Virus record (IMG/VR): IMGVR_UViG_3300025018_002598
Coordinates: 19,340 to 83,339 of that record
From: a virus
Lineage: Duplodnaviria > Caudoviricetes
Length of the DNA stretch: 64,000 nt
Strand: one strand, 5' to 3'
Each line of letters opens with the position of its first letter. Position 1 is the first letter of the stretch. Shown here piece after piece: positions 675-16,056 of the stretch. The position numbers were made by a program, and so were the translations under genes. The notes below the pieces were generated by a model, which was not told where the DNA came from, ran no database searches, and was given only the letters and a program-made list of their open reading frames with translations.

Positions 675-3600
675 ATGTTTCTTAAGTATGCCAAATTACA
701 AATTCTAAATGTAGCATCTTTTAATAAAGATTTTGAAAAAAAGTCTTCTATGGAAGATGTAGTCCTTTATAGCCCAAAGACAGCATTTATTAAACATGAT
801 ATTTCAGAAAATCTTATCATGGCTAAAAATGCTTTGGACATCGTTTCGGAATTAGAACAAAGAGATCCTGAAGAATGGATCGTTTTCAGGTCTAGGGCCA
901 TTGACGCTGGTGGTTCTGAAGAGACTGGTGAAATATGGCATGGAGCCAATGATAACGGTGATTTCTTCTCAGAAGAAGAATTACTTAAATCTTACAGCTC
1001 CACTGAAGACGGTAAAGAAATTAAATCATTTGAAACTTTCATTAATTGTCCTATTTTTACTAACCATCAAAATACTGATATAGAAAAAGCTCGTGGAAAA
1101 GTAATTAATGCTTTTTACGACAAAGACAATCATTGCGTTTATACTGACGCCTTGGTTGATGCCAAAGCTTATCCAGAATTAGCTCGTGGAATTAGAGAAG
1201 GATATATATCCGACGTTTCTATGGGTGCTTCTGTTAAATTTAGCGATTGTTCAATTTGTAATCACAGAGCAACAAATGAAAAAGAATATTGTGTTGTTCC
1301 TGGTACCTATATTGAAACGGAAAACCATACAATTAAACCAATTGAAGATATTGAAATTGGTGACAAAGTATTAACGCAAGATGGCACTTATCAATCGGTT
1401 TTAGATATACATGAAAGAGAAATAGAAGATGAAATATTTGAAATTTATGCTTCTGGAAATAATGTTCCATTAGAAATAACTGGAAATCATGAAGTTTTAA
1501 CTATACCAAAAATGTCATATAGAATGACTTTTGAACAATATATTCAAAGAAATGATTTAAAGCCTGTATATAAAAGAACTGATGAGTTAAATATTGGTGA
1601 TTTTGTTCTTTATCCAAAAGAGAATCTTCGAAAATCTGAAAATCCTTTAAAATCTTTAAGATTTGCTAGGCTTCTAGGCTTATTTATTTCAGAAGGTAAT
1701 CTTTTTAGAAATAAAAAAGGAGAGATTAACGCTTTAGAATTTCATTTATCTTTAGAAGAGAAAGATCTTCTTGAAGATTTATTGAATCTAATAAAAGAAT
1801 TTGCGGTAAGAGAAGCTAAAGTTTATAAAAAAACTTCAACTTATCACATAAGAATATGGGATAAAGATCTAGCCGAAAAGGTTGTTTCGTTATGTGGACA
1901 TGGGGCAAGGACCAAATCTCTTTCAAAAGAAATAATTAATGCTTCTGGTGAATTTAAAATAAATTTATTAGGCGGAATAATAGATGGTGATGGCTGGGTA
2001 GATCCAAAAGACTATAGAAGCGTAATTGTCACGTCTTCCGACAATTTGTCTTATCAAATTAAAAAAATATCACAAGATCTTGGCTTTTCATGCTCTATTT
2101 ACAAGACTTTAAATACTCAAAATGAAACTGTAAAATACTCCAGTGGAGAACCAAACACAATAAATCATGTAAGATTTGGGTCTCATGCAACGTCAATAAT
2201 AAAACAAGGAAAATGTAAAAAACTTGAGAAATTAAATTGTCAAGAATTTGAAAAGGCAACATCGAGTTGGATTTTTGACAATTATCATGTTTCAAAAATT
2301 AGAAAAATATCTAAAAAATATTATTCTGGAACTGTTATGAATTTAGCCGTAGAAAACAATGAAAATTATATAGCGAATGGAATGATTGTTCATAACTGTT
2401 CACATGTAAAAAATCACAAAGGCAAGAAGTTGGGCGGAAAAGAAGTCTATGAAATAAATCATGGAATTAAATTCATAGAATTGTCTGCTGTTACAGATGG
2501 TGCTTGTGATAATTGTACTATTCAAAATTCATACACTGGTATGGAATTCTTAGATAAATTAAAAAATATGATTTCGGCAAGTCATTCAAATGCAGTCGCC
2601 TTGAAAAAAGTTGCAATGTTCAAGGGTTCTGCTGGTGATGATATTGATAAGTTGAATAAGTCCTTAGATTTGCTCAAGGGAGTTGCCGAGACAATCCTCA
2701 ATTCAAAAGATGTTGATTTTGAATTCTTGGAAGATATTGGTCAACTCTTAGCTGAACTCCAAAGTTTGATTGTTGATTTAGTTGAAGCGGGATTTGCGAA
2801 TCAAAACCCTGCTGGCGAAACACAAGGGGAAGGCACTCAACAACAAGCTGCTGATGCACTCACTGGTGGAGAAGAAGTTCCTGCCAATCAAGGTGCTCCA
2901 CCTACCGGAGACAATCAGTCTCAGGGATTGATGAGTCCTACCTCCCCTGTTTCATTAGGTGGGAAGGAACAAAATATAAAAACTGCGAATTTATTAGAAG
3001 GTTTAAAAACCCAAGTTCCAGAAATAAAGAAAATACTTGCTTCAATTAACAACTTAAAAAACCAAATAACTTTTGACGGAGATGAAGAAATGGCAACCAG
3101 CAAGAACATTAAAAGAAAACTAGCTTCTAACAGAATTAGTGAGAAGTTCTCTGAAATCTTAGAGAGTCAGGTTTCAAATAATGAACCTGCAATTATTAGT
3201 GACGGCCCCTATTCTGTTAAAATTGATTTTAACAAAGGAATTCAGGGGTTTGTTGGCAATAATAGAGTGATCGCTATGACTGTTGAAGAAGTTGGCGATG
3301 ATCTTCTTGGTTTAGCCAAAGTAAATCCTTCCGTAATTGGTGGAAGATTGATTGAAAAGCTTGCTTCCAAATACGATGAAAATGGAGAGGTAAAAATGAG
3401 CAAACAAGCAAAAGATTTAAATATTAAGGAGGCTTTTATTGAGAATCCTCCTCCAGTTGAGCAAGTTCAGGAAGGTCAGTTAGAAGATCTATCTGGTAAT
3501 TTCGACAGAAAGAACCATCCTGAATTAGCCGAAGGACAAATCGGTGCTACAACTCAAAAGCAATTAGAAAATGTTCCAAAGTCTAAAGAGACTGGAAAGG

Positions 3601-6600
3601 GTGACTGGAATAGAGTTCGTCCTGAAGGAACAAAAGAAGATCGTTATGTTCAAGAAATTGAACTAGATCGTCAACGTCCTACTGATTATGGTTCCGAAAG
3701 AGCTTCTTCTGGAGCGGCTAAGGCAGAAGGACAGCACTCAGGTACTCAAGAGAGTCAGTTACAAATGTCTCTCAACTATGGTTCTGAGAGATGGATTGAC
3801 GACGCAGCTCCTTGTGATTATTTACCTACTACTGAAGGTCAGTTTTCTGGTAAGGACCGCAAAGGAAAGGCTGTTGATGAAGTTTACGAAGGTCAACTTA
3901 CTGGACATAGACAAGGAAATGATTCTGAAGTTTCTTCAGAATCATTTCCTCACACAGCAAGTGTAGAAGATTATATTGCTGGTAAAGTTGTTACAGCAAT
4001 TAAGAATGGTCTTACTAACCTTGTAATGGAACATGGTATATCTCCAAAAACAATTGTGAATTCAAAAATTGATTCCAAGAAAATTGCTTCTGGAAATAGA
4101 AATAAAATTTTAAAGAAAGCACAACTTGCACAGGTTGATGTTCAGAATCTTGCAGAAAATGAAATTATAGACCAAATTGGTCCTAACATGGATTTGGCAG
4201 AAGATTATTTAGATGATGCAATTGTTGTATTGTTTGAAGATCCTGCCGAACTTGAAGCGGAACTTAGAAATTATACAAAAGAAAGACTTGCTAAGATTCA
4301 AGAAGTTTCTGATAAAGAAGATTCTGATGAAACTGTAGAGTCTAAGAGAAGAAAAGCTCTTAAAGAAAAGGCTTTCAAGAGAAACGCAAATCGTGTCTCT
4401 ATGCCTGTTGATGCTCAGAAATTAACAGAACTTTTCCCAGGAGTAAGTGACTTCACTGGTCTTGATGCTAAATTAGTTAAGCAGAAATTCCTTCAGTCTC
4501 AACCTGGTGCAAAACTTCTTGATTTCCGTAAAGTTGACGGTGGATTTGTTGCTGAAGTAGAACTTCCAGAACAGTCTGGTGAAGAAAGTGGAAATTCCAT
4601 TAATTCAAATGGTGTTCCATCTCCTTCAATTCCTTCCAACAATGCTCCTTCTCACGATTCTCAATCTGCTCAGTCTGCTCAGTCCGATCAGTCTGTAGAA
4701 TCAACAGTCGAAGTTGCTGCCGAAACAGTTGATAAACTTAAAGCTTTTGCAAAGCAGAAGAAAGAAGCACAGTCTCCTGCTGGAACAACAATGCCTCCTC
4801 CTCAAGGTGGTGCCGCTGGTGGTGGCGCTGCTGGAGACCCAATGGGTGGCGGTGGTGCTCAAGATTTATTTGGGAACACTCCTGAAGGCGCTGGCGATGT
4901 CATTGATGAAACAGAGGATGATATGGAAGATGAAGTTGGAGAAGCTAAACCATTTGGTTCTTTCAACCCATTTACCGGAAATGAAAACGTAGATGTTGTA
5001 GATGGACACTATAGAGATTCTGATACAGGTCTTGAATGGGAAGTTCAGATGAACATCAATGTTCTTAATCCAGAAAAAATTGATGATATTCAGTTTAAAG
5101 AAAATACAGATGCCGACTCAGAACTTACTGAAGGCGAAGATATTAATGAAGAAATTGCTGGTCAGCCTAACGCTGCTCCAATGGGAGCACCTGCTGGTGG
5201 TGGCGCTGCTGCCGATCCAATGGGAATGGGTGCAGGTCCAATGGCGTCATATCCTGGCTGGGTAAAAGATGCTCCATTGAAACTTGCAATGAAAGCTTCT
5301 CCAGAATATTTCTTGAATGAAAAAATGAAAAGTGATCTTAATATCAAGACAGCCTCTAAGCCAGTCGGTTCTATCTGTCCTCAGTGTGCTTCACACAAAG
5401 TGGCTTTCAGAAACTCCGAAGGTAATTGTGCTTCTTGCGGATGTAAGACATATGTTACTGCTAAAAAGAATAAGGCTGGAAGTCTTGATGTAGATCTTTA
5501 TATGCTTCCAAACCTTAAGAGAGCGGAAAAAGAAAACCGTTTTGGTGGACACGCAGTTACTGCGAATGTTGAAAACAAAGAAGTTGTAGAAAAAGCAATT
5601 CATCAGATTTTATCTGATAGAAGAGCTTTAGTAAAAGCAGCTTCTATATTAGAAAAAGATCCAATGCTTGCATGTATCAGCGAACAGTCTGTTCGTGGAT
5701 TCGACTCAGAAGATTCGATTCAGATTTGTGCTTCCATTAAATCATATCTCACAAAACAAGCTCAATTTGAAGAAGAGGATGACGAAGAAGATGATAATTC
5801 AGAAGAAACTTCATCTCCAACAGTACATGATTCTGACTCAGAAGTAACTGATAGTGTTGAGTTTGAAGATGAAATTGATGAAAGTGGAGATTCCGAAGGT
5901 CTTGAAGAAGTTGAAGAAGAGTCAGATACAGTTGAAGATACTGACGATTCCGATCTTGAAGAAGTATTTGAAGATGAGTCTGGTGAAGAAGGTGACGACT
6001 TTAGTTTAAATCTTCAGTTCACTGATTCTGATGGTAAGTCTGGCAGCATTAACATTACAGAAGATGGTGTTGATGTAAACGGAGATGTTTTTGAAGGTGC
6101 GGAATCTACTGATGATTTCGGTTCAGACATCGCAGAAGACGGCGAAGAAATGTTTGAAGACGAAATGGGTGAAGAAGCTCCTGAAGAAATTGAAATTACA
6201 GAAATCGTTGAAACAGAAGATGACGATCCATCTTCCTTGGACGGACTATTCTCTTCCTCTGTAGATAAACTCGATAGAGAAACAGAAGAATCCGAAGGTC
6301 CAAGTGAAGAATCTGAAGATGAATTTGACGTAATGGCAAATTCACTTAACACTTCTGAACTTCTTAGAGGTTCAAGAGTAGCTTCTTCAAATAGAAGCGG
6401 TGGTTCTTCTCTAGACCTTGGCTTCTTGAAAGCAGCTCTTCAGTCAGTTCCAACTGATACTGGAGCGGACGTTCCTAGAAGTGAAGAGCATGGTGTTCGT
6501 GACGAAGGTGGAAATGTTCATACAACTAAAAATGAAAATTCCGCAAAAAAAAGAAATTCTATTGCCGACACTTCTTTTAATGAAAAGGGAGTAGCTAATG

Positions 6601-7358
6601 GATCAGACAGAGGAGTTGAACAAATCAAACCTCAAACTGGAAAACATGCTGGATCTGCTGACGATTTTATTGTGACAGCGGGTGAAGACAATAAAGAAAA
6701 AGGCAAAAGAAAAGATGTTTGCCCAGACGACTTCGCTGATAAGCAATGTCCAGGAAAGGGTAAAGATAAATCAAACAAGCCTTACAAGGGTGGTGAGAAA
6801 GTAGAATCTTGTAATGCTGGTTCAGAAAAGAAGAAGGTTCAAGCTCAAACAGCACCTACTCAGCAATTAGAGCCAGTTGACGCAATTGAAGAAGGAAAAG
6901 AAGAGTCTAATGGAGAGAAGTTTGACATTCCAAGAGATAAATCTAAATCAAATCCTGAAATCAATGTAAAGCGTAAAGATGTTACTAGCCCTACAAAGGT
7001 AAGAAATAGTGATTATGGCTTTGGTCAGAAAGCTAAAGATCTTCATACAGAAGTAGTTCCTAGAGACTCCTCTGGTGATGGACTTGGCGGACCTTCTACT
7101 ACATTTGAAGATGAAGTAGCAGAGAATAGAACTTCTGGAAGTCCTGATACATATGTTCAGGAATATCAAAAGCAGAATCAGATCAAGCCAACTCCAGCAG
7201 GTAATGCAGAAAATCACGCCACAGCATCTAAAGAAGTTTGTATTAAGATAGCAAAAGCAAATGACTTAAATGCTAATAGATTAGAAGCAATTAACTTTGG
7301 TTCATTCTATGTTGTTCGTGACCTAGATTCTGGAAGAACATTTAAATATTCAGAATAA
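675..7358 (+). CDS. Prohead protease / scaffold-like polyprotein (2227 aa) with intein
   Basis: The N-terminal domain has phage prohead-protease-like motifs (NDNGDFF, FTNH, GKV, VSMG followed by CxxC...CxH). An intein occupies aa 206-574, followed by low-complexity, Zn-ribbon (CPQC...CASC) and acidic segments. It lies upstream of the scaffold and MCP genes. Confidence 0.8.
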   Translation: MFLKYAKLQILNVASFNKDFEKKSSMEDVVLYSPKTAFIKHDISENLIMAKNALDIVSELEQRDPEEWIVFRSRAIDAGGSEETGEIWHGANDNGDFFSEEELLKSYSSTEDGKEIKSFETFINCPIFTNHQNTDIEKARGKVINAFYDKDNHCVYTDALVDAKAYPELARGIREGYISDVSMGASVKFSDCSICNHRATNEKEYCVVPGTYIETENHTIKPIEDIEIGDKVLTQDGTYQSVLDIHEREIEDEIFEIYASGNNVPLEITGNHEVLTIPKMSYRMTFEQYIQRNDLKPVYKRTDELNIGDFVLYPKENLRKSENPLKSLRFARLLGLFISEGNLFRNKKGEINALEFHLSLEEKDLLEDLLNLIKEFAVREAKVYKKTSTYHIRIWDKDLAEKVVSLCGHGARTKSLSKEIINASGEFKINLLGGIIDGDGWVDPKDYRSVIVTSSDNLSYQIKKISQDLGFSCSIYKTLNTQNETVKYSSGEPNTINHVRFGSHATSIIKQGKCKKLEKLNCQEFEKATSSWIFDNYHVSKIRKISKKYYSGTVMNLAVENNENYIANGMIVHNCSHVKNHKGKKLGGKEVYEINHGIKFIELSAVTDGACDNCTIQNSYTGMEFLDKLKNMISASHSNAVALKKVAMFKGSAGDDIDKLNKSLDLLKGVAETILNSKDVDFEFLEDIGQLLAELQSLIVDLVEAGFANQNPAGETQGEGTQQQAADALTGGEEVPANQGAPPTGDNQSQGLMSPTSPVSLGGKEQNIKTANLLEGLKTQVPEIKKILASINNLKNQITFDGDEEMATSKNIKRKLASNRISEKFSEILESQVSNNEPAIISDGPYSVKIDFNKGIQGFVGNNRVIAMTVEEVGDDLLGLAKVNPSVIGGRLIEKLASKYDENGEVKMSKQAKDLNIKEAFIENPPPVEQVQEGQLEDLSGNFDRKNHPELAEGQIGATTQKQLENVPKSKETGKGDWNRVRPEGTKEDRYVQEIELDRQRPTDYGSERASSGAAKAEGQHSGTQESQLQMSLNYGSERWIDDAAPCDYLPTTEGQFSGKDRKGKAVDEVYEGQLTGHRQGNDSEVSSESFPHTASVEDYIAGKVVTAIKNGLTNLVMEHGISPKTIVNSKIDSKKIASGNRNKILKKAQLAQVDVQNLAENEIIDQIGPNMDLAEDYLDDAIVVLFEDPAELEAELRNYTKERLAKIQEVSDKEDSDETVESKRRKALKEKAFKRNANRVSMPVDAQKLTELFPGVSDFTGLDAKLVKQKFLQSQPGAKLLDFRKVDGGFVAEVELPEQSGEESGNSINSNGVPSPSIPSNNAPSHDSQSAQSAQSDQSVESTVEVAAETVDKLKAFAKQKKEAQSPAGTTMPPPQGGAAGGGAAGDPMGGGGAQDLFGNTPEGAGDVIDETEDDMEDEVGEAKPFGSFNPFTGNENVDVVDGHYRDSDTGLEWEVQMNINVLNPEKIDDIQFKENTDADSELTEGEDINEEIAGQPNAAPMGAPAGGGAAADPMGMGAGPMASYPGWVKDAPLKLAMKASPEYFLNEKMKSDLNIKTASKPVGSICPQCASHKVAFRNSEGNCASCGCKTYVTAKKNKAGSLDVDLYMLPNLKRAEKENRFGGHAVTANVENKEVVEKAIHQILSDRRALVKAASILEKDPMLACISEQSVRGFDSEDSIQICASIKSYLTKQAQFEEEDDEEDDNSEETSSPTVHDSDSEVTDSVEFEDEIDESGDSEGLEEVEEESDTVEDTDDSDLEEVFEDESGEEGDDFSLNLQFTDSDGKSGSINITEDGVDVNGDVFEGAESTDDFGSDIAEDGEEMFEDEMGEEAPEEIEITEIVETEDDDPSSLDGLFSSSVDKLDRETEESEGPSEESEDEFDVMANSLNTSELLRGSRVASSNRSGGSSLDLGFLKAALQSVPTDTGADVPRSEEHGVRDEGGNVHTTKNENSAKKRNSIADTSFNEKGVANGSDRGVEQIKPQTGKHAGSADDFIVTAGEDNKEKGKRKDVCPDDFADKQCPGKGKDKSNKPYKGGEKVESCNAGSEKKKVQAQTAPTQQLEPVDAIEEGKEESNGEKFDIPRDKSKSNPEINVKRKDVTSPTKVRNSDYGFGQKAKDLHTEVVPRDSSGDGLGGPSTTFEDEVAENRTSGSPDTYVQEYQKQNQIKPTPAGNAENHATASKEVCIKIAKANDLNANRLEAINFGSFYVVRDLDSGRTFKYSE
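1290..2396 (+). mobile_element. Intein (369 aa) with LAGLIDADG homing endonuclease in prohead protease
   Basis: Starts CVVPGT..IEDIEIGDKVLT (block A/B) and ends YIANGMIVHN followed by Cys. LAGLIDADG-like motifs LLGLFISEG and LLGGIIDGDG. Confidence 0.93.
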
Positions 7359-7513: not shown

Positions 7514-8833
7514 ATGAGGAGTATAGGAATGAATAAAACACAATTATTTTCAGATGGAACCTTTATCACAGCTTCCGATTCTGGTGAAATAAAAAAGGCT
7601 ACAAAGAATGAAGTCGTAGCATTTTTATCTTCACAGTTTCCGGCATCAAAAAGTGGTGCTGAGTTAGAGGGTGTGAGATTCGACAGTGAGTCTGGTTATG
7701 CATATGCAAGATATGCAAATCAAAAAGTTTTCAAGAAGAGAATAGCTCAATCGGCTCCAGTAAATCAAAGTGAGCCTGTTGATTCTTGCGACAGAACTCA
7801 GGAACATGGTGGAAAGAGTGAAAAATTCGACACACCAAGAAATGAGTCTAAATCAAAGCCAGAAAAGTCTGACAGAAAGGATGTTGATAATCCTACAAAA
7901 ATTAGAAATAAGAATTATGAACCTGGAAAAGATAATGTTCATACTGATGAGGTTCCTTGCAGTAAGAGCAATTCGGGTCTAAAGGGCAGTAAGGGAACTA
8001 CTTTTGATGAAGAGAAGTCTCATACTCAAAAAAGTGGAAACCCAGATTCATATGTTCAAGATTTTTCCTCTTCAGAAAAGCCAACTCCAGCAGGTAAAGA
8101 AGGAAACCACGCAGTAGCTAATACAGAAGGTGTTCAAATTAAAAGTTCGTCAGATATGTATGGTTATGAATCTGTAATGGGTGGCAAAGACGAAGATAAA
8201 GAAGGCAAAGGCTTTCCTTTCTTCGGAAAAGGGGACGATGAAGATAAAGAAGACAAAGAAGATAAAGAAGACAAAGAAGATAAAACAGAAAAAGGCGCAG
8301 ACAAAACCGAGAAATCTTCCAAAGATGATAAAAAGGAAGAAGGCGAGAAAAAAGAAAGTAAGGCGGAAAGCCAACTTAGTATAAAGGTATCTGAACTTCA
8401 AGGCAACCTATCTAAGTTAAGTAAAGAACTAGACAAAGGACGTATTCGTGAAGCCCGTCGCAATGCAGCCGTCAAGCTAGTCTTGGCAAAGCGAGACAGA
8501 AATCCAGAGAAGTTCCTTGATGGGGAAGTTTTCTTGGAAGAAGTTAACAAGATCGCAAAGAAAATGAGTGTAGAAGCAATCGAAACAGCAATTGAAGAAA
8601 TCGGTATTATTAGATTACAAGAAGTAGAAAATTCGAAAGCGATCAAAGAAGCTGCTGCTGAACTAAAAGCAGAACCAAACAGAGCAGGCTTAATGCAAAG
8701 CCTTGTTGTCCCACAGGACAATTATAAATTTGCAAGCAAGTCAAATGAATCAAATCTATCAGAAGTTCTGATGGCACATACCAAATTTGGTAAAGATGTA
8801 GAAAAAATGAGAAAGTACCATGAGGAAAATTAA
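7514..8833 (+). CDS. Scaffold-like head protein (439 aa)
   Basis: Lies between the protease and MCP genes, with a charged EDK-repeat linker and a C-terminal coiled-coil-like region. Shares a domain of about 125 aa with the C-terminus of the 2227-aa protein. Confidence 0.6.
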   Translation: MRSIGMNKTQLFSDGTFITASDSGEIKKATKNEVVAFLSSQFPASKSGAELEGVRFDSESGYAYARYANQKVFKKRIAQSAPVNQSEPVDSCDRTQEHGGKSEKFDTPRNESKSKPEKSDRKDVDNPTKIRNKNYEPGKDNVHTDEVPCSKSNSGLKGSKGTTFDEEKSHTQKSGNPDSYVQDFSSSEKPTPAGKEGNHAVANTEGVQIKSSSDMYGYESVMGGKDEDKEGKGFPFFGKGDDEDKEDKEDKEDKEDKTEKGADKTEKSSKDDKKEEGEKKESKAESQLSIKVSELQGNLSKLSKELDKGRIREARRNAAVKLVLAKRDRNPEKFLDGEVFLEEVNKIAKKMSVEAIETAIEEIGIIRLQEVENSKAIKEAAAELKAEPNRAGLMQSLVVPQDNYKFASKSNESNLSEVLMAHTKFGKDVEKMRKYHEEN

Positions 8834-8866: not shown

Positions 8867-9484
8867 ATGTTAATTCCTATTTTTCGTGTAATAGCATCTC
8901 AGTTCCCAGTAGATACACTTACTGGCAATGTTGAGATGGGAATGGCTGTGGGTCTAGTAGAAAATTCTGCTGGAAACGTAGTTATTCGTAAGTCCGACGA
9001 CAACGCTGCTGCGAATACAGCTCAAAACGTCGTTGGAATCGCAGGTGACAGAAAGCGTGCTTCTGAAGCCTATGAGTGGACCAATCGTGTCTCTGACATG
9101 GGTGATGATACTTCTGCCAGCGGTCTTATGACTGTTTATCATGGCGGTGGTGAATTCTGGTTCGACGTTGATGATGGTAACATCACAACTCCACTAAATG
9201 AGTCTACAATTCGTGGACCTATTTCCAGTGCGGCAACAATTACAGTTGGTGGATATCTTTATGTAGCTGACTCTTCTCAATCAAATGAGGAATCTGGTCA
9301 GTTCCATAACTCTGAAAGTACAGCAATCGTTCGCTCCGGCGAAGGTGTTCCTGTCCTTCAGGTTGTTTCTAAGGCATCCAGCATTGAATCCGGTATTCCA
9401 GGTGAATACGAACCAGGTTCTAGCGTGAACTACCCTGATCCATCCGTTCCTAGAACATGGGTTAGAGCAAGAGTTCTAGTCTAA
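8867..9484 (+). CDS. Probable capsid decoration/cementing protein
   Basis: 205-aa beta-rich protein immediately upstream of the MCP, with a GGAGG RBS. Assignment rests on synteny only. Confidence 0.5.
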   Translation: MLIPIFRVIASQFPVDTLTGNVEMGMAVGLVENSAGNVVIRKSDDNAAANTAQNVVGIAGDRKRASEAYEWTNRVSDMGDDTSASGLMTVYHGGGEFWFDVDDGNITTPLNESTIRGPISSAATITVGGYLYVADSSQSNEESGQFHNSESTAIVRSGEGVPVLQVVSKASSIESGIPGEYEPGSSVNYPDPSVPRTWVRARVLV

Positions 9485-9525: not shown

Positions 9526-10392
9526 ATGAGTTTAATCAAGAATACAGCTAATGATGCAGAAAAAGAGTTGCTTATCGCACAGGCTCTTGAAACACCAGAA
9601 GGTCGTGTGGCTTTGGCCCAGGCTATGGTGGAGCCTATCAAGCGAGCACTTGAGTATCAAGCAATCGGTAGAAAGCTTCTAATGGTGGATGAACTTCCAC
9701 AGGGAGCGTTGGCAAGATACGAGAAGGACGTAGCGTCTACAGCTTATGTTGTTTCAAGACGTGGTGGCGTCCGTGACCGTATCGTTGAAGGCGAAGAAGT
9801 GTTGGTTCCAACATTTGAAATCGCAACAAATCCTCAGATTCGTTTGAGTGAAATTAAAGCACGTAGATTTTATATCGTTGACCGTGCGCAGATGAAAGCT
9901 AAAGAAGCTATTCAGAAGCAAGAAGATACCGAAATTCTCGGTGATATTAATGCTGCTGTTCGTTCTGACCAGACTGTAACTCAGTCCGGTGACTTGAGCA
10001 TCGCTTCTCTTAACTATGCTTTCTCTACAATTGAGTCTCACGACTTAACTGTAGCTAAGATCGTTATGCACCCACAGCAGTATGCTGACATCCGTTTGTT
10101 CGGACGTGACGTGTTTGACGAAGCAACAAGACGTGACGTACTTATGTCTGGTCTCTTCGGACACCTTTGGACATCCGACATTCACGTTTCACACAGAGTA
10201 CCACCAGGTTCCGTTTACTTACTAGCTCCGGCTGAGTATGTAGGTGCTATTCCAGTAAGACAGGACATTACTGTTCTTCCTGCTGACGATCCTAAGAACT
10301 TGAGACTTGGATGGGTTATCTTTGAAGAAATCGGTATTGTTGTTATCAACGACTACGCAATCGCAAAGATTAATCTCACAGCAACTAGCTAA
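9526..10392 (+). CDS. Major capsid protein (HK97-fold type, 288 aa)
   Basis: Follows the protease, scaffold and decoration genes, has strongly biased high-expression codon usage, and is followed by a strong terminator. Size and C-terminal beta-strand pattern fit an HK97-type MCP. Confidence 0.85.
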   Translation: MSLIKNTANDAEKELLIAQALETPEGRVALAQAMVEPIKRALEYQAIGRKLLMVDELPQGALARYEKDVASTAYVVSRRGGVRDRIVEGEEVLVPTFEIATNPQIRLSEIKARRFYIVDRAQMKAKEAIQKQEDTEILGDINAAVRSDQTVTQSGDLSIASLNYAFSTIESHDLTVAKIVMHPQQYADIRLFGRDVFDEATRRDVLMSGLFGHLWTSDIHVSHRVPPGSVYLLAPAEYVGAIPVRQDITVLPADDPKNLRLGWVIFEEIGIVVINDYAIAKINLTATS

Positions 10393-10420
10393 TCAGTAGT
10401 TGACAACCACAAACCCAATG

Positions 10421-10450
10421 GGGGCGGGCCGAAAGGCTCGCCCCTTTCTT
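10421..10450 (+). terminator. Intrinsic terminator after MCP
   Basis: GGGGCGGGCC-GAAA-GGCTCGCCCC (10-bp stem, GNRA loop) followed by TTTCTT. Confidence 0.9.
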
Positions 10451-10452
10451 TA

Positions 10453-11430
10453 TTAGTAATATCTGTCAATAAAATTAATGACTTCATTGTCCGTCATTTC
10501 AAAACTAAAATCAATAGATCCATCTCTTACAAATCTTTCAATCTCACGTATCATTCTAGATCTTAAAGATAGTATTTCTGAAATGTATCTATCTTTAGAC
10601 AACAAAGAAGTCTCTTGAGAGAATAGATCGTATATATATTCATTAATTTTAATATAATCTATTTCTTCATTTCCCTTTACTTTTTCTTGAAAATTTTCTA
10701 ATTCACGATCTAAAAAGTCTGACTGTCCAGAAAGTACAGATTCTTTTATTGAATAATTAAGAAAATAAGGTCTCAAAATAGAAGTCCCCCATGAAATATC
10801 TCTAAAGCCATATGATGTAAGATATTCACCTCGACTTATATGAATTACCCTATCTTCTTTCAATGTATTTTTATTAGAAATTACATCTCCAGTCCCATAG
10901 ATATATTCTTTTCTTCCATTTTCCATCTTTTGTTCAACATTGTCTGGAATAAGATTTGAAATAGATAAATATGTTCCTGAACTTAAATATTTATTCATAT
11001 TTGAAGATACAAAATTATCTCCAAATAAAAAATAGTTTCTAGCGAGTTCGACGACTATTTGATTCATCTCAAGCAAGACTTCTTTTTGTCTGTCTGAACC
11101 TTCCATTTTAAACTTGTAGAATTGAAAAGACGACAATCTCTGTATTGTTTCAGAAACTTCAGAGTAGTTTGTATTGTAATATCTACAATAAGTATAGGTC
11201 TCCCTTCGTTTTGTAGGTAATTGCCACTTCATCGCAGCGAGATGCTGAATAAAATGATCTTCCGGCTCTAGATTGGCCGCTTCTTTCTGAGTCCTACTTA
11301 ATCCGTATTCTTTCAATTTATATCTAACGTATCTTGACGTATAATTCAAGATTTCTGATATCTCGTAACTGGATTTCCTCTGTTTGATGTATAGGTCGTA
11401 AAGAATATCTCTATTTATTTGCTTTTTCAT
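10453..11430 (-). CDS. N-terminal HTH fused to truncated/degenerate portal-like domain
   Basis: HTH-like start (LYDLYIKQRKSSYEISEILNYTSRYVRYKLKEYG), then portal-type motifs YFLFGDNFV, LIPDNV, RVIHI and WGTSILRP. Confidence 0.55.
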   Translation of the reverse strand: MKKQINRDILYDLYIKQRKSSYEISEILNYTSRYVRYKLKEYGLSRTQKEAANLEPEDHFIQHLAAMKWQLPTKRRETYTYCRYYNTNYSEVSETIQRLSSFQFYKFKMEGSDRQKEVLLEMNQIVVELARNYFLFGDNFVSSNMNKYLSSGTYLSISNLIPDNVEQKMENGRKEYIYGTGDVISNKNTLKEDRVIHISRGEYLTSYGFRDISWGTSILRPYFLNYSIKESVLSGQSDFLDRELENFQEKVKGNEEIDYIKINEYIYDLFSQETSLLSKDRYISEILSLRSRMIREIERFVRDGSIDFSFEMTDNEVINFIDRYY

Positions 11431-11533
11431 GATGACTACCTCCGTCGAAGTCTAGGAAATGATACAATTTCCTAGTTTGTTTTTTATGGCCATTTGTTGT
11501 CTCGTATCAATTTGAAAAAATAGGAAGATTAAA

Positions 11534-11713
11534 ATGGAAAGAAAAGAAAAAATAAAACTTACGTATGAAATGAGGAACAGAACGGGGCTTTCAATGATTA
11601 TTTGCTATAGAGAGTTAGAGGCGAATGATTGGGATATAGAAAAGGCCAGTAAATGTTATAGGGATCGCACTCTCCGTGAAAAGAGTAAAAGAGGAGATTT
11701 CATCACATGGTAA
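11534..11713 (+). CDS. 59-aa protein resembling the EF-Ts N-terminal (UBA-like) domain
   Basis: My translation is MERKEKIKLTYEMRNRTGLSMIICYRELEANDWDIEKASKCYR..., which follows the EF-Ts pattern VKELRERTGAGMMDCKKALxEANGDIEKA. It is below the ORF-track length cutoff. Confidence 0.7.
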   Translation: MERKEKIKLTYEMRNRTGLSMIICYRELEANDWDIEKASKCYRDRTLREKSKRGDFITW

Positions 11714-12009
11714 CAAAGGATGTTCTTCTGCTAAGTTTATTACAATGGGGAAATCGTCAACTAAGTAGAGTAAACAATCCTCATAGATTTTTAGTCGTAA
11801 TACCTAACGATTTCAATAAAAATGAAATTTTAGAATTTACCAATTCTTACATTCAAGAAACAAGTCAAAAATATTTTATATTAATAAAAGAAAATGAAAT
11901 AAAAGGTAAATATGATATTCATGGACATTCTTGCAATGTTGTATTTTATAAGACTTCTAAATTTGAAGACTTAGAATATGCTAAAAATATTTTTATTCCA
12001 ATGAACTAG
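11707..12009 (+). CDS. Hypothetical protein
   Basis: 100-aa ORF overlapping the previous stop, in a co-directional small-ORF island. Confidence 0.55.
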   Translation: MVTKDVLLLSLLQWGNRQLSRVNNPHRFLVVIPNDFNKNEILEFTNSYIQETSQKYFILIKENEIKGKYDIHGHSCNVVFYKTSKFEDLEYAKNIFIPMN

Positions 12010-12044
12010 GCATGAAGATCTTAATTTTGTAGAGGTACTTTAAA

Positions 12045-12491
12045 GTGGACAAAAAGAAAAGCGTTTGTTGGAATATAGATCTTACTCAAAAACCAATTGA
12101 GCCTAATGAGAAAAGATTAAAAATCAATAAGGCAAAATTTGAATACGAAGGAAAACAATATGAATTCGAAGTTTTAGATGTCGTTCATCTTGGAACTTTA
12201 CCAGAGTGGCAGTTTTCAGATAGAATGTTAGAAACTTGTGGTTTGACTCTATGTATTGTTTTTGATTCGTATTCAAACAACTTTAACGATACGAATTTAG
12301 GTTTGTCAAAAAAGACTTTTACTCTTTGGTTGAGCGGCGATGGAATTTCTTTTCCCGTAGAAGTTCATGGAGGGAATTATAATCGAAAAGATAATCCAGT
12401 TGCAGGTCCAGGAAAATCCTATGATTATGGATATGAAGTAGATACTGATTGTTTTTTTGCATGTTCTTCTCCATGCTATTTCAAGAAATAA
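12045..12491 (+). CDS. Hypothetical protein
   Basis: 148-aa ORF with GTG start and GAGG RBS. Confidence 0.65.
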   Translation: MDKKKSVCWNIDLTQKPIEPNEKRLKINKAKFEYEGKQYEFEVLDVVHLGTLPEWQFSDRMLETCGLTLCIVFDSYSNNFNDTNLGLSKKTFTLWLSGDGISFPVEVHGGNYNRKDNPVAGPGKSYDYGYEVDTDCFFACSSPCYFKK

Positions 12492-12503
12492 AAAGGATTA
12501 TAA

Positions 12504-12830
12504 ATGGACAAATTAGATCAAATAAAAAAAGAATTAAAATATTTAGAATTTGCAAAACATTGTTCTAATGAAAATTTTCCAGCCTATGATCTTTTTGTTA
12601 ATTATTTCTGCGACAGAGATCCTTATAATTCAGATAATGCAAGAAAAGAGATTAGAGATTTAATTCATGAAAAACAAACTTTGATATTAGAAGAGGCCTT
12701 GAAGACCCCAGAGGGAAAAGAAGCCTTATCTAAATATTTTAAAGATGAAGAAGATAAGCGCCTAAAAGATGAAGAAAAAAAAGAAAGTAGTAGATTTTAT
12801 GCTCAGAGAAAAGGAATTGACCTACAATGA
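12504..12830 (+). CDS. Small protein carrying MCP N-terminal motif (ALKTPEGKEAL)
   Basis: LILEEALKTPEGKEAL versus MCP 15-30 LLIAQALETPEGRVAL. Confidence 0.7.
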   Translation: MDKLDQIKKELKYLEFAKHCSNENFPAYDLFVNYFCDRDPYNSDNARKEIRDLIHEKQTLILEEALKTPEGKEALSKYFKDEEDKRLKDEEKKESSRFYAQRKGIDLQ

Positions 12831-12988
12831 TTGATGAAAATGTATTAGATGTTTTTCTAAAAGAAAGAGAAATAAAATCTAAAGAAATGTCCGAAAGAAG
12901 AAAAAAAGAAAGAGTGGTATCCAGCCCATCTCCCATTGCTAATGATAGAGTTAAGGGAAGATTTCCCACTTCAAAAGATGTTGAATAA
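12827..12988 (+). CDS. 53-aa hypothetical protein
   Basis: The ATG overlaps the upstream stop (ATGA). Translation: MIDENVLDVFLKEREIKSKEMSERRKKERVVSSPSPIANDRVKGRFPTSKDVE. Confidence 0.5.
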   Translation: MIDENVLDVFLKEREIKSKEMSERRKKERVVSSPSPIANDRVKGRFPTSKDVE

Positions 12989-13205
12989 AAAATATTCAGA
13001 TTTAACTTCAAGATATTACTGTCCAAATTGTGGCAATAAATTAAAGTATGAAAATTCAGAAGAGGCATTAAGGGAATATAAAGAAGTTGAAGTAAAGTTA
13101 AATGAATACCTTAAACTTCATCATCCTCTTAAAATACGCAGTGATCAAGAATCCTATGAAACGCCAAGGGGCGACGACTCCTTTGCTATATCTTTTGTAG
13201 ATTAA
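12978..13205 (+). CDS. Small CxxC (Zn-ribbon-like) protein
   Basis: Contains YYCPNCG. The ORF track start at 12936 is TTG; the ATG at 12978 is more plausible. Confidence 0.55.
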   Translation: MLNKKYSDLTSRYYCPNCGNKLKYENSEEALREYKEVEVKLNEYLKLHHPLKIRSDQESYETPRGDDSFAISFVD

Positions 13206-13217
13206 GGAAATGTATAA

Positions 13218-13715
13218 ATGGAAGTTATAAAAAAAACAGTTTATAAAACTTCTGACGGAAGAGTTTTTCTAGATATAAATAAGGCAAATTCTCATGAAGA
13301 AACAATAAAACTAATGAAAAGGGATGCGAAAGTCAAAGACTTAGAAAAAAAAGTTAAAGATCTCTTTCCCATTTCGAAAAAAGTCAACTGTGAACAAGAC
13401 AAAGAACTTATGGAATTAACAAAGAAGATTCCTAGTTATTTAGAATATCGAATAGATTTGTATTGTGAATTCACTGGAATTCCTCTAAGGGTATACTCTA
13501 CTAAATTCCATGACAGTGGACATCAGTATGAAAAAAGCTATTCAGAAGATATAGATAGAATTTTAGATAGACCGCATACAATCTTAAGGTTGGGTAACGT
13601 GGTTAGGACATATTCTAAAGAATCTTATAAAAAAGACATTGTTCCTATTTTAGAGAAAAACCATCTAGTCATAAAGAAATATTTGTTTGAGTTCTATACT
13701 GGAGTGTTGAAATGA
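13218..13715 (+). CDS. Hypothetical protein
   Basis: 165-aa ORF with AAGGA RBS. The N-terminal VYKTSDGRVF motif is common in phage small proteins. Confidence 0.65.
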   Translation: MEVIKKTVYKTSDGRVFLDINKANSHEETIKLMKRDAKVKDLEKKVKDLFPISKKVNCEQDKELMELTKKIPSYLEYRIDLYCEFTGIPLRVYSTKFHDSGHQYEKSYSEDIDRILDRPHTILRLGNVVRTYSKESYKKDIVPILEKNHLVIKKYLFEFYTGVLK

Positions 13716-13906
13716 AAAAAGAAGATAAATACGTAGGCGCCATTCCAGTAAGACAGGACATTACTGTGCTTCCAGCAGATAAAGAAGAAGGATTGAAGTT
13801 AGGATGGATAATTTATGAAGAACTTGGCCCAATCCATTTTGCTGAAGTTTTCTGGAAAGATTTTTCTGATGAAGACAAGATAAAGAAAATCAACGAATAT
13901 AGATGA
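13712..13906 (+). CDS. 64-aa protein carrying MCP residues 238-270
   Basis: YVGAIPVRQDITVLPAD (17 aa) is identical to the MCP, followed by LKLGWIIYEELG versus LRLGWVIFEEIG. Confidence 0.85.
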   Translation: MKKEDKYVGAIPVRQDITVLPADKEEGLKLGWIIYEELGPIHFAEVFWKDFSDEDKIKKINEYR

Positions 13907-13912
13907 GACGAA

Positions 13913-14155
13913 ATGAAGCATATAATCAGAAAAGAATTATATGAAACGAAAGAATATACTATTGAAGAAATTCACGAAGAATTATATGAAACGAAAGAAT
14001 ATACTATTGAAGAAATTCACGAAGAATTAAATCGAAGATTAGAGGCGACAAAAGAAAAGGACTTGCCGAGATATTTATCTTACAATAAAGATAAGTTTGA
14101 GTATGATGAAGATGGAAAAATAATAAAAGTAATTAGTTTGAGAGAAGAGGTTTGA
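13913..14155 (+). CDS. Hypothetical protein with 15-aa tandem duplication
   Basis: ELYETKEYTIEEIHE occurs twice. Confidence 0.55.
   Translation: MKHIIRKELYETKEYTIEEIHEELYETKEYTIEEIHEELNRRLEATKEKDLPRYLSYNKDKFEYDEDGKIIKVISLREEV
13932..14029 (+). repeat. Perfect 45-bp tandem repeat (about 2.2 copies)
   Basis: AAGAATTATATGAAACGAAAGAATATACTATTGAAGAAATTCACG at 13932-13976 and 13977-14021, plus a partial third copy. Confidence 0.95.
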
Positions 14156-14601
14156 TTGTGCCAACTTATCCTATAGAATTAGATAGAGGAATTTTTGAAA
14201 TTGCCGTCTCTGATTATGTCGAAAAAAAGATGGATAAAATTGATTTTATTCGCAATTATGTGGTGAGAAGTTTAGAGAATGAAGTGAAAGGAAAAATAGT
14301 AAGAATCTTGTCTGCTCATTTCCACCAAGATCCTATGATGCGTCAAAACATATATAGAATAGAAGTAGATTACATCCATGAAGAAAGATATGGAGATCAT
14401 CTTGGTTCTGTATTTTCTCAGTTATTAGAGAATGGAAGTTATAGAAATCCAGAATATGATGAGCTTAGATTTGAACAACAATATTTTGTGGACTTTCTAC
14501 CTACGACTCCCGTACTAAAGCCTTCGAAAGAAAAAGTAAAAAAAGAAATTACATATACCAAAATAGATTTAGATGATTTTAAATTCATGGAAGTTGAATA
14601 G
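14152..14601 (+). CDS. Hypothetical protein
   Basis: 149-aa ORF whose TTG start overlaps the upstream stop. Confidence 0.6.
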   Translation: MIVPTYPIELDRGIFEIAVSDYVEKKMDKIDFIRNYVVRSLENEVKGKIVRILSAHFHQDPMMRQNIYRIEVDYIHEERYGDHLGSVFSQLLENGSYRNPEYDELRFEQQYFVDFLPTTPVLKPSKEKVKKEITYTKIDLDDFKFMEVE

Positions 14602-14615
14602 GAAAGGAAAAAATA

Positions 14616-15248
14616 ATGGGAATGTATACTGTTGTAATTCACCCTGAAACAAAAGAAGAGATTCAGATAAAGTGTGGTGGAGATTGGTGTGATAAATATG
14701 AAGTGGGAGATGAAGTCCCATTCAAAATACATCCTGATTGTTCTATGATGGCAGATTTTGCTGATGGGATCTATGTTGGGCTTGGCGAAAGAAATGATTT
14801 CAAAAGTTTCAACAGTTACTATGTTGTAATTTGTGAAGGGAAGATTGCAGAGGTTTCCGAAAAATATCACTCTATGGATTCTAGGGCTGGTTATGAAAGA
14901 GAAGAACTTTACAATAAATATAAAGATCGTTTTATAGAACTTGAAAAGTCTTGGTGGAGTGATGAGGCTTGGAAAAAAGACGAAGAACTAAAGAAAGAAC
15001 TTGAGATTAAAAGGAAAGAATATTTAGATAGACATCATCCTAATTATGAAAAATATAGTGATGAAGAGAAATTTACAGCCAATGTAGTACATGCAATGTC
15101 TGCTTCTAGGCTCAATTACCAAGAGATTGGTAAAAAACTTATGTCCATACAAGAACTACCTCAAGGTGCTTTGGCTAGATATGAAAAAGACGTTGCCAGT
15201 GTTCATCATGTTGTAGGGAAGAGGGAAGAAAATGAAAATAAGAATTGA
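14616..15248 (+). CDS. 210-aa protein ending in a copy of MCP residues about 42-79
   Basis: LNYQEIGKKLMSIQELPQGALARYEKDVASVHHVVGKR versus MCP LEYQAIGRKLLMVDELPQGALARYEKDVASTAYVVSRR. Confidence 0.85.
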   Translation: MGMYTVVIHPETKEEIQIKCGGDWCDKYEVGDEVPFKIHPDCSMMADFADGIYVGLGERNDFKSFNSYYVVICEGKIAEVSEKYHSMDSRAGYEREELYNKYKDRFIELEKSWWSDEAWKKDEELKKELEIKRKEYLDRHHPNYEKYSDEEKFTANVVHAMSASRLNYQEIGKKLMSIQELPQGALARYEKDVASVHHVVGKREENENKN

Positions 15249-15429
15249 AATGTGGGAAGATTTTGCATATTCCCTTGGAGAATTGAAAAACGAAACTACA
15301 TCCTTTTGTGCGATTGCTGAAGTCACTGAAGAAGAACATAAAGAGATGCAAAGAATAATGAAAGATTACTATAGTTTACAGGAAAGATTAACAGATCTTT
15401 ATTCAAAATACGAAAAGGAAAAAAAATGA
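15232..15429 (+). CDS. Small hypothetical protein
   Basis: 65-aa ORF coupled to its neighbours. Confidence 0.55.
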   Translation: MKIRIEMWEDFAYSLGELKNETTSFCAIAEVTEEEHKEMQRIMKDYYSLQERLTDLYSKYEKEKK

Positions 15430-15881
15430 GTTTAGAATCAGATAAAAAAAACGAAGAGTTAATTCAATTGGCATTAGAGACAGGAGCGGGAAAGCGAGCA
15501 ATACAAGAGGCTCTTGGCGGATATGAAATGTTTAAAAGAAACTTAGATGATAAGAATAAAAACCTTGTCGAAAGATTAAATGAATCATATTCTAAAATAG
15601 AAAATCAATATGAAGAAATGGGCGACAAAGAGTATATAATTCCATTCGGAGTGAAATGTCTGGTGGAAGCGAGAGACTTTCTATTAAAACATCAGGCTTG
15701 GGAAGCGAAAATGTTGGAAACAGATGAATGCTGGGAAGACTCATTACCAAAATTAAATCAAGAACTATATGATGAATCTTTAGATATTCAGGGAAATAGA
15801 AACCACCTATTAAGTCGTATTGAAATGCAATTAAATATTATAATTAAAAAGAATGAGGAGAAACAAAATGCCAAGTCTTGA
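15426..15881 (+). CDS. 151-aa protein starting with MCP N-terminal-like motif
   Basis: EELIQLALETGAGKRAIQEAL versus MCP 14-34 ELLIAQALETPEGRVALAQAM. Confidence 0.65.
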   Translation: MSLESDKKNEELIQLALETGAGKRAIQEALGGYEMFKRNLDDKNKNLVERLNESYSKIENQYEEMGDKEYIIPFGVKCLVEARDFLLKHQAWEAKMLETDECWEDSLPKLNQELYDESLDIQGNRNHLLSRIEMQLNIIIKKNEEKQNAKS

Positions 15882-16056
15882 TCAACATATAGCAGACTGT
15901 ATAGAAGAGATGGGTAAGGGGCACAGAGAAGTTCATATTTGGTTGGATGAATACTTTAATACTATGGGTCCAAAGCATATCTGATTCATTCTCAAGCAGA
16001 TCGATGGCCTCCTCAAGGGATATTGCCTTTTTGATAAAATACGACCAATTTGACAT
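15844..16056 (-). CDS. Short ORF MSNWSYFIKKAISLEEAIDLLENES..., probably truncated
   Basis: Its ATG overlaps the TGA of 16056..16361 (TGATG). The distal half is antisense to the plus-strand gene at 15868. Confidence 0.4.
   Translation of the reverse strand: MSNWSYFIKKAISLEEAIDLLENESDMLWTHSIKVFIQPNMNFSVPLTHLFYTVCYMLIKTWHFVSPHSF
15868..15984 (+). pseudogene. 38-aa ORF, probably 3'-truncated
   Basis: GAGGAG RBS. Translation MPSLDQHIADCIEEMGKGHREVHIWLDEYFNTMGPKHI* ends abruptly where it meets a convergent gene. Confidence 0.4.

Follow-up and report, generated by a model that had tools for sequence, protein, structure and literature searches.

A conserved C-terminal tail resembling the N-terminal arm of the major capsid protein, in a small protein encoded behind the head genes of an aquifer phage

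This report deals with a small protein encoded behind the head genes of an uncultivated phage, in the 64,000-nucleotide stretch of DNA analysed here (the window), which comprises bases 19340-83339 of the 83-kilobase (kb) IMG/VR record IMGVR_UViG_3300025018_002598 from an aquifer metagenome. The protein, of 210 amino acids (aa), is the product of the plus-strand open reading frame (ORF) 14616-15248, which lies in an island of short ORFs (10453-15984) downstream of the gene for the major capsid protein (MCP). It was observed that residues 151-203 of this protein (15066-15224) are homologous to the N-terminal arm (N-arm) of the MCP, residues 28-79, and sequence comparison indicates that this MCP-like tail is an old and selected part of a protein family, and neither a local graft nor debris. 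By analogy with known tags, the tail may mimic the MCP arm and serve as a docking tag that brings the N-terminal beta domain of the protein, either a cargo or a modulator, to heads under assembly, a reading to which we assign a probability of about 0.4.

The six frames of the whole genome were searched with the MCP itself and with a hidden Markov model (HMM) made from 81 family MCPs, and, besides the MCP, exactly two significant extra matches were obtained genome-wide, at 13703-13828 and at 15111-15224. The latter corresponds to residues 166-203 of ORF 14616, aligned with MCP 42-79 (E 1.9e-11; 2e-13 with the HMM), and contains a core of 16 identical residues at 15153-15200. ORF 14616 covered only positions 40-80 of the MCP HMM, which makes it a fragment and not a capsid protein. 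The other match belongs to ORF 13712-13906, considered further on. The original prediction, made from the letters of the window, held that at least four ORFs of the island carry MCP segments; those assigned to MCP 42-79 in ORF 14616 and to MCP 238-270 in ORF 13712 held up, and the two assigned to MCP 14-34 turned out to be non-significant.

The age of the tail became apparent from an exhaustive HMMER search with ORF 14616 against 1.84 billion cluster representatives (E<=0.001), which returned 179 matches; the motif of the N-terminal domain was present in 117 of the 150 best matches listed. The members of this family, designated 'MGMFT' (alignment A2), are typically ~160-230 aa long. Their N-terminal beta domain shows an MGMF(T/S) start and the motifs Q-I-K-x-G-x-D and D-G-x-Y; a WSEEAW motif and a charged helical linker are also present, and the C-terminal peptide follows the pattern RLNY..IARK.F.VEPLP. 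ORF 14616 aligned to the family from residue 1, with matches down to E 6.6e-25, and Q17, G21, D23, G31, D50 and Y53 were invariant in the family alignment. When this alignment was compared with that of the MCPs by hhalign, family positions 140-185 were matched to MCP 28-73 (96.3%, E 1.6e-9, 46 columns), and the family profile picked out the MCP N-arm, at ~1e-8, in phage G as well as in each of the 50 related records. Across 93 members, conservation amounted to 2-2.9 bits in the beta domain, 0.7-0.8 in the linker and 1.8 bits per column, at 98% occupancy, in tail residues 171-180, and identity outside the tail was only 26-41% across the family. The conservation of the tail across so diverged a family shows that the MCP-like peptide of ORF 14616 is under selection. 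For this ORF, the earlier idea of a graft taken from the neighbouring MCP is wrong, since its MCP-like tail is an ancestral feature of the family.

The N-terminal domain of these proteins is a novel beta domain, and the family is both unnamed and widespread. It was absent from Pfam and PHROGs, and a word-index protein search with the N-terminal part of ORF 14616 returned self-matches only, the relatives having emerged solely in the exhaustive search. A model of ORF 14616 predicted by AlphaFold2 (AF2) with the family alignment reached a predicted local distance difference test (pLDDT) score of 86.5 and comprised a six-stranded beta domain (aa 1-82), four helices (93-175) and an extended tail. 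The helices stop at residue 175, and residues 176-210 are extended with a confidence falling from 79 to 48; thus, the tail occupies in the model a C-terminal position behind a flexible linker, as in encapsidation tags. No convincing fold match to this model was found in the PDB by Foldseek, in BFVD or in VIA wide, and a search of the ESM Atlas retrieved unnamed viral clusters only.

The tail of the window protein was also compared with the types of MCP arm that occur among related phages. In about half of the family members the tails reach into MCP 59-68, and few extend beyond. The window tail extends to MCP 79, its distal half being identical to the clade of its own MCP and its proximal half keeping family-type residues. 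At 22 aligned MCP-invariant positions in this tail, the MCP residue was kept in 10 of 10 in the core versus 4 of 12 in the flanks (Fisher P 0.0017). The closest relative of the window protein by N-terminal domain (P0002, 41%) differs in the distal tail, and the tail of another member, P0015, resembles the arm of more distant MCPs (LR745208, Tunturi_5). In two related phages, G016 and G033, other arm-bearing ORFs were most similar to the MCP of their own genome, which ranked 1 of 81, and these ORFs have an unusual G-A-Y variant in common with that MCP. Such matches between tail and MCP type could result from descent, gene conversion or co-evolution.

A docking tag is favoured because a globular domain followed by a flexible linker and an extended C-terminal peptide is the layout of known encapsidation tags. 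Also in its favour are the MCP homology of the tail in both single-sequence and profile comparisons, its conservation across the family, the likeness of different tails to different MCP subtypes and of the G016 and G033 ORFs to their own MCP, the contrast between core and flanks, and the signs that the ORFs are translated. In P22, 80alpha and other phages with the HK97 fold, the scaffold binds to the N-arm of the MCP, which also touches neighbouring subunits, and both the HK97 protease and the cargo of encapsulins enter shells by means of C-terminal tags. Moreover, the satellite protein CpmB of SaPI1 is described as competing at the N-arm/scaffold site of the MCP (PMC5644958). In the mechanism proposed here, the tail of ORF 14616 would display the surface that an unassembled MCP subunit offers with its arm, and would engage the normal receiver of that arm in head assembly, namely neighbouring MCP subunits or the scaffold. 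The N-terminal domain would thereby be brought to, or held at, assembling capsids, where it could act as cargo or as an assembly modulator.

However, several points weigh against docking. No member of the N-terminal domain family was found in the 50 related records (six of them 97-100% complete by CheckV), in phage G or in 50,697 GenBank phage records, so that the protein is dispensable for assembly, and a role in conflict would be the better fit. Elsewhere, MCP arms are fused to twin-arginine-like export signals, which is hard to square with a role in cytoplasmic assembly. The match to the resident MCP could be explained by descent or gene conversion without selection, and within the family this matching concerns one cognate pair of tail and MCP, that of the window; two IMG/VR contigs that carry family members showed no MCP, and a distant portal was seen on one of them. 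In addition, the predicted model of the MCP had a pLDDT of 55, too low for placing the segments on the structure.

The export-type fusions belong to a wider set of MCP pieces in other phages and in metagenome proteins. A search with the MCP profile revealed extra partial MCP matches in the full records of 10 of the 50 relatives. The G036 genome harbors a full-length divergent MCP paralogue of 358 aa (L127:4162-5235, minus strand), 5 kb from its MCP, and G016 encodes both a 233-aa mini-MCP with a signal-like start, in which MCP 49-106 is joined to 246-277 (L120:4008-4706, minus strand), and a 155-aa ORF with MCP 11-79. Shorter pieces were found in a 75-aa ORF of G012 (MCP 8-40), in a 127-aa ORF of G033 (MCP 30-63) and in proteins of 277-284 aa of G021 and G024 (MCP ~5-45). 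In G027, a 71-aa ORF with MCP 238-286 is parallel to the 64-aa ORF 13712 of the window, and this genome carries a piece 68-117 that contains a stop, followed by 239-286. In L008, degenerate colinear MCP pieces (40-72, then 84-117) lie directly after a LAGLIDADG endonuclease. No extra MCP piece was found in phage G, and none was found in 224 cultured actinophage records, which were examined for extra N-arm pieces only.

Among the matches listed that correspond to the tail alone, at least seven small proteins have a twin-arginine-type leader at their start, followed by the MCP arm ~10-80 (P0048, P0077, P0078, P0091, P0099, P0124 and P0130); the leader, of the type S/T-R-R-x-F-L-K, was assigned by eye and no predictor was used. 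On an 8-kb metagenome contig, the products of two adjacent genes (L179:1932-2731) each open with a twin-arginine-like signal, followed by a basic linker and then by one of two successive slices of a phage-G-type MCP: residues 9-85 (E 1e-39) in one and 76-147 (E 3.5e-32) in the other. This arrangement of signal and arm recurs in at least six other small metagenome proteins. A twin-arginine motif with a hydrophobic stretch was found in neither ORF 13712 nor ORF 14616. Two larger metagenome proteins, in which MCP segments are repeated or rearranged, were also seen: P0094 (428 aa) contains MCP 9-79, 11-40, 237-286, 151-192 and 87-125 in that order, and in P0133 (457 aa) an unrelated N-terminal part of 240 aa is fused to MCP 6-152.

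The same MCP module fused to many unrelated partners, Tat-like (twin-arginine translocation) signals included, would be expected if these peptides were immune baits. In that case, the MCP-like peptides would mimic the part of the unassembled MCP that is recognised by a host sensor, and the fused parts (in ORF 14616 the beta domain, in other proteins an export signal or a membrane anchor) would neutralise or remove the sensor. The sporadic, non-essential distribution in a hypervariable island, with homing endonucleases in L005 and L008, is typical of arms-race genes, and MCP-sensing bacterial sensors are established, some with an EF-Tu component (Avs7, from a preprint; CapRel and Lit); a weak UBA/EF-Ts_N-like ORF lies within the island. 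However, a binding-activated sensor should be triggered, not blinded, by an identical epitope; receptors of the Avs type read whole folds over extended interfaces and not 45-aa arms (Avs7 preprint); and the EF-Ts likeness was below threshold. An immune bait is therefore considered an unlikely explanation. A broader reading is similarly doubtful, in which MCP slices would make up a novel kind of mobile protein module among uncultivated phages whose capsids are of the phage G type, and would serve as baits that resemble unassembled MCP. Such slices, fused to a beta domain, to membrane anchors or to twin-arginine signals (with two consecutive slices export-tagged in one operon), would capture a host immune sensor or the capsid or scaffold protein of a rival, and would then neutralise or evict it.

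The second significant match requires a different explanation from that of ORF 14616. In ORF 13712-13906 (plus strand, 64 aa), residues 7-39 correspond to MCP 238-270 (13730-13828) and are followed by 25 unrelated residues. The stretch 13703-13828 matched MCP 229/238-270 with a tblastn E of 1.4e-12 and a family HMM E of 8e-15, and the ORF covered only HMM positions 236-272, a fragment without the full HK97 fold. It has its own ATG, which overlaps the upstream stop, and a GGAG 8 nucleotides upstream. This ORF seems to be a young gene made from a C-terminal fragment of the MCP.

Both segments differ from the resident MCP gene in a manner that had been taken as evidence of selection. The 17-aa identical run of ORF 13712, YVGAIPVRQDITVLPAD, shows 7 nucleotide differences from the MCP gene and the 16-aa run of ORF 14616, ELPQGALARYEKDVAS, shows 13, all of them synonymous, exactly as had been claimed. 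When equal numbers of changes were placed at random, the peptide was preserved with a frequency of 2.6e-5 for the 17-aa core and in 0 of 500,000 trials for the 16-aa core (P <2e-6). However, among 80 related MCPs, with an overall identity of 63-93%, both cores are invariant or nearly so, and because the cores are family-invariant MCP motifs, synonymous-only divergence is insufficient as proof of selection; a fragment from any relative's MCP would likewise differ from the resident gene at silent sites only. The claim that the segments are selected as peptides is therefore retained for ORF 14616 only, and not for ORF 13712, on account of the family-wide conservation of the ORF 14616 tail and not of the synonymous pattern. 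Two simple origins were considered and rejected. The closest DNA donor among the MCP genes of the 80 relatives matched the segments at 65-76% and the cores at 84-86%, which speaks against recent gene conversion from a sampled MCP and means that the copies are not recent transfers from a sampled relative. Cassettes for MCP variation were discarded since the segments encode the invariant and not the variable parts of the MCP.

Such fragments could also be relics, that is, debris of duplicated or foreign head genes that were broken by recombination and endonuclease traffic 3′ of the MCP and persist without function in open frames. The relatives offer a decay series of this kind, from the paralogue of G036 through the mini-MCP of G016 and the colinear pieces of L008 and G027 to single fragments, and the invariance of the cores means that synonymous-only differences are expected from a copy of any relative's MCP. 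For ORF 13712, a word-index search for small-protein homologues gave a self-match only, a weak blank since that search also missed the family of ORF 14616, and its flank, in which only 3 of 12 MCP-invariant positions are broken (counted by eye), gives no clear sign of new constraint; nor did any island ORF show a homologue when the 10 kb on either side of the MCP were compared in the 80 relatives. However, relics cannot account for a tail conserved across many diverged family members, and the lack of a close DNA donor, the in-frame position of the fragments with ribosome-binding sites and coupled starts, and the contrast between core and flanks in ORF 14616 also argue against them. As a general account, relics are thus held to be improbable; they are a reasonable interpretation of ORF 13712 and of the two weak matches described below, and not of ORF 14616.

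The invariance of the mimicked segment has a further implication, since one mimic could affect many relatives whose MCPs are 63-93% identical. In a co-infected cell, the arm mimics might therefore poison the MCP or scaffold of relatives with the same invariant arm, or send it to the wrong place, acting as dominant-negative inhibitors of assembly or in superinfection exclusion. The distribution is of the accessory-gene type, and the same aquifer sample harbours several related phages; L036 shares its sample with one assembly of the window genome. However, the tail is identical to the type of its own MCP and would poison its producer unless tightly timed, and interference with rival phages is regarded as very unlikely.

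A third gene of the island is related to a virion protein. ORF 10453-11430 (minus strand, 325 aa) is homologous at residues ~64-204 to the N-terminal part of the portal, and it matched the portal family HMM with an E of 5.6e-6 at positions 68-159 of 795 and the portals of relatives with blastp E-values of 1e-9 to 1e-10 (24-31% identity over ~140 residues), in support of the truncated portal-like protein noticed at the outset. The alignment does not extend over the whole 700-800-aa core of a portal. The ORF is colinear with residues 104-119 and 556-621 of the phage's own portal and spans the first intein site of that protein without an intein. Residues 1-55 form a helix-turn-helix like that of the homing endonucleases of relatives, and the first 30 residues share 50% identity over 28 aa with a 732-aa endonuclease-like protein of L005 (pairwise E 0.002). 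The portal-like part is followed by a C-terminal region of 120 aa. The gene product is thus a truncated, diverged portal paralogue placed behind a DNA-binding helix-turn-helix. Virion-protein homology therefore seems to be real in three genes of the island, which probably have differing histories.

Three other ORFs gave weak matches. ORF 11534-11713 (plus strand, 59 aa) has a weak, sub-threshold UBA-like three-helix signature: the Pfam matches were TAP_C (E 0.0014, 18.6 bits against a cut-off of 21.3), UBA_8 (E 0.0049, 17.0 against 26) and EF-Ts_N (E 0.025, 15.0 bits against 33.2). All of them are below the curated cut-offs, and the peptide, once proposed to resemble the N-domain of EF-Ts, is UBA-like at best. 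ORF 12504-12830 (plus strand, 108 aa) weakly resembles MCP 14-35 at residues 59-80, and ORF 15426-15881 (plus strand, 151 aa) weakly resembles MCP 9-43 at residues 5-41; MCP origin is established for neither. The stretches concerned (12672-12734 and 15438-15548), originally both read as MCP 14-34, are the next-best MCP matches of the genome after the two significant ones, with six-frame HMM E-values of 1.4 and 0.37 and hhalign values of 12.7% and 12.9%, respectively, and that reading was not borne out. PHROGs of unknown function fit the same residues about equally or slightly better (PHROG 29458, E 7.5e-4, for ORF 12504; PHROG 20721, E 6e-4, for ORF 15426). For ORF 15426, no homologue was found in the 50 full records, and the word-index search, here too a weak blank, returned self-matches only.

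The island as a whole consists, up to 15984, of one minus-strand gene followed by ~14 short plus-strand ORFs. This agrees with the AT-rich block of small ORFs described behind the MCP terminator, although the number given, about 17, was slightly high (~15-16 altogether). Its GC content is 31% versus 45% in the MCP gene, and the genes 3′ of the island are on the minus strand, which places it at a convergent junction. The island ORFs look translated, given the long open frames in AT-rich DNA, the GGAG-like ribosome-binding sites and the overlapping stop and start codons found in most of them, and the gene calls were consistent across three independent assemblies. The nine remaining plus-strand ORFs (starts 11707, 12045, 12827, 12936, 13218, 13913, 14152, 15232 and 15853, within 11707-15984) had no match in Pfam or PHROGs, and neither a virion-protein piece nor a known family was detected in them with these databases. 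A Pfam search with 19 island and flanking proteins yielded sub-threshold matches only.

In the closest relatives, L005 and L008, homing endonucleases and other cargo occupy the place of the island 3′ of the MCP; LAGLIDADG-type endonuclease genes were seen at L005:11066-14960 and L008:11007-11894, one of them fused to a methyltransferase-like part. The block is thus a hypervariable island of accessory genes, placed where the head-gene operon ends, and not a conserved system. The coherent 'system' originally proposed finds no support: homologues of the island ORFs were missing from the 10 kb around the MCP in the 80 relatives, the ORF 14616 family had no member in the 50 full records, and only two or three ORFs demonstrably carry virion pieces. 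Two further features of the island were recorded. ORF 13913-14155 (80 aa) contains a perfect tandem 15-aa repeat, and one independent assembly has one repeat copy fewer (65 aa), the copy number being either polymorphic or collapsed by the assembler. The stretches 12972-13071 and 15440-15575, the latter being the start of ORF 15426 with its weakly arm-like part, reached 4-5 times the surrounding contig depth in four other aquifer runs, and the contigs over them continue into unrelated sequence, which indicates that they are common to other, more abundant genomes.

The head module upstream of the island is on the plus strand. Its portal, which has two inteins, and a small ORF are found immediately before the window; in the portal gene (G000:C1:14388-19253), intein-sized insertions were located between HMM positions 90/92 and near 380. 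Within the window, the module goes on with a protease-led protein of 2227 aa (675-7358, plus strand), which includes one intein with a LAGLIDADG domain and whose C-terminal 150 aa share 45% identity with residues 74-215 of the scaffold-like protein. Next come this scaffold-like protein (7514-8833, plus strand), a decoration-like protein (8867-9484, plus strand) and the MCP (9526-10392, plus strand; 288 aa), which is of the phage G gp27 type (PHROG 2522, E 2.7e-70; 53.5% identity to gp27; PDB 6WKK, E 2.4e-96) and represents the type from which the mimicked segments come. A strong, GC-rich terminator hairpin with a T-run (10420-10445, plus strand; stem of 11 pairs, 9 of them G-C) separates it from the island. 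Three further assemblies (81-83 kb or parts) were 99.98-100% identical to the window genome, and the essentially identical sequence in four further aquifer runs and three other assemblies made a population-level ratio of nonsynonymous to synonymous polymorphism (pN/pS) impossible to obtain.

Capsid proteins are prime targets of bacterial immune sensors and lack the freedom to mutate. If the docking reading is true, accessory proteins that copy the most invariant arm of the phage's own MCP would offer a novel means by which capsids of the HK97 type are loaded or steered; if the bait reading is true, they would be the first counter-measure to use self-mimicry in the arms race over capsid sensing. 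The work also defines a large unnamed protein family and provides a rule for finding similar cases, in which each phage genome is searched with its own MCP profile. Full-text literature searches, which included the recent phage G genome paper, brought up no phage for which capsid decoys, arm mimics or genes made of MCP fragments had been described, and no match to the layout of the island, in agreement with the earlier statement that it was undescribed. A conserved family tail that copies the MCP N-arm thus appears to be a form of self-mimicry without description in the literature searched.

Several known systems nevertheless resemble parts of it. The encapsulin cargo-loading peptides and the tail of the HK97 protease likewise place a short conserved peptide at the C-terminus, joined by a flexible linker to a globular domain, in a system with an HK97-fold shell. 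However, the tags known so far are non-homologous to the shell protein, whereas the tail of ORF 14616 copies the N-arm of the shell protein itself; unlike encapsulin tags, it has no G-S-L motif, and its binding to the shell is putative. The T4 vertex protein gp24 is a paralogue of the MCP derived from gp23, and in both cases MCP duplication gives extra capsid-related genes, as with the full-length divergent paralogue of G036; unlike gp24, the window genes keep only 33-50 MCP residues and cannot form the HK97 fold. The Gol peptide, a short segment of the T4 MCP that acts with Lit and EF-Tu, and the trigger of CapRel are MCP-derived elicitors of immunity. In these systems, as in Avs7, short or exposed parts of the unassembled MCP are what the cell senses; the triggers are parts of the MCP itself, in contrast to the window pieces, which are separate genes, and we know of no phage-encoded separate MCP copy described as a decoy. 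Tat signal peptides permit hitch-hiker export of bound partners, and several metagenome MCP-arm proteins have a comparable S/T-R-R-x-F-L-K-type start, which the window's own proteins lack. Finally, CpmB of SaPI1 is described (PMC5644958) as a small accessory protein that alters 80alpha head assembly by mimicry at the N-arm/scaffold interface, as is proposed here. However, CpmB mimics the C-terminal helix of the scaffold and is encoded by a satellite, whereas in the window the MCP arm is mimicked and the gene belongs to the phage itself.

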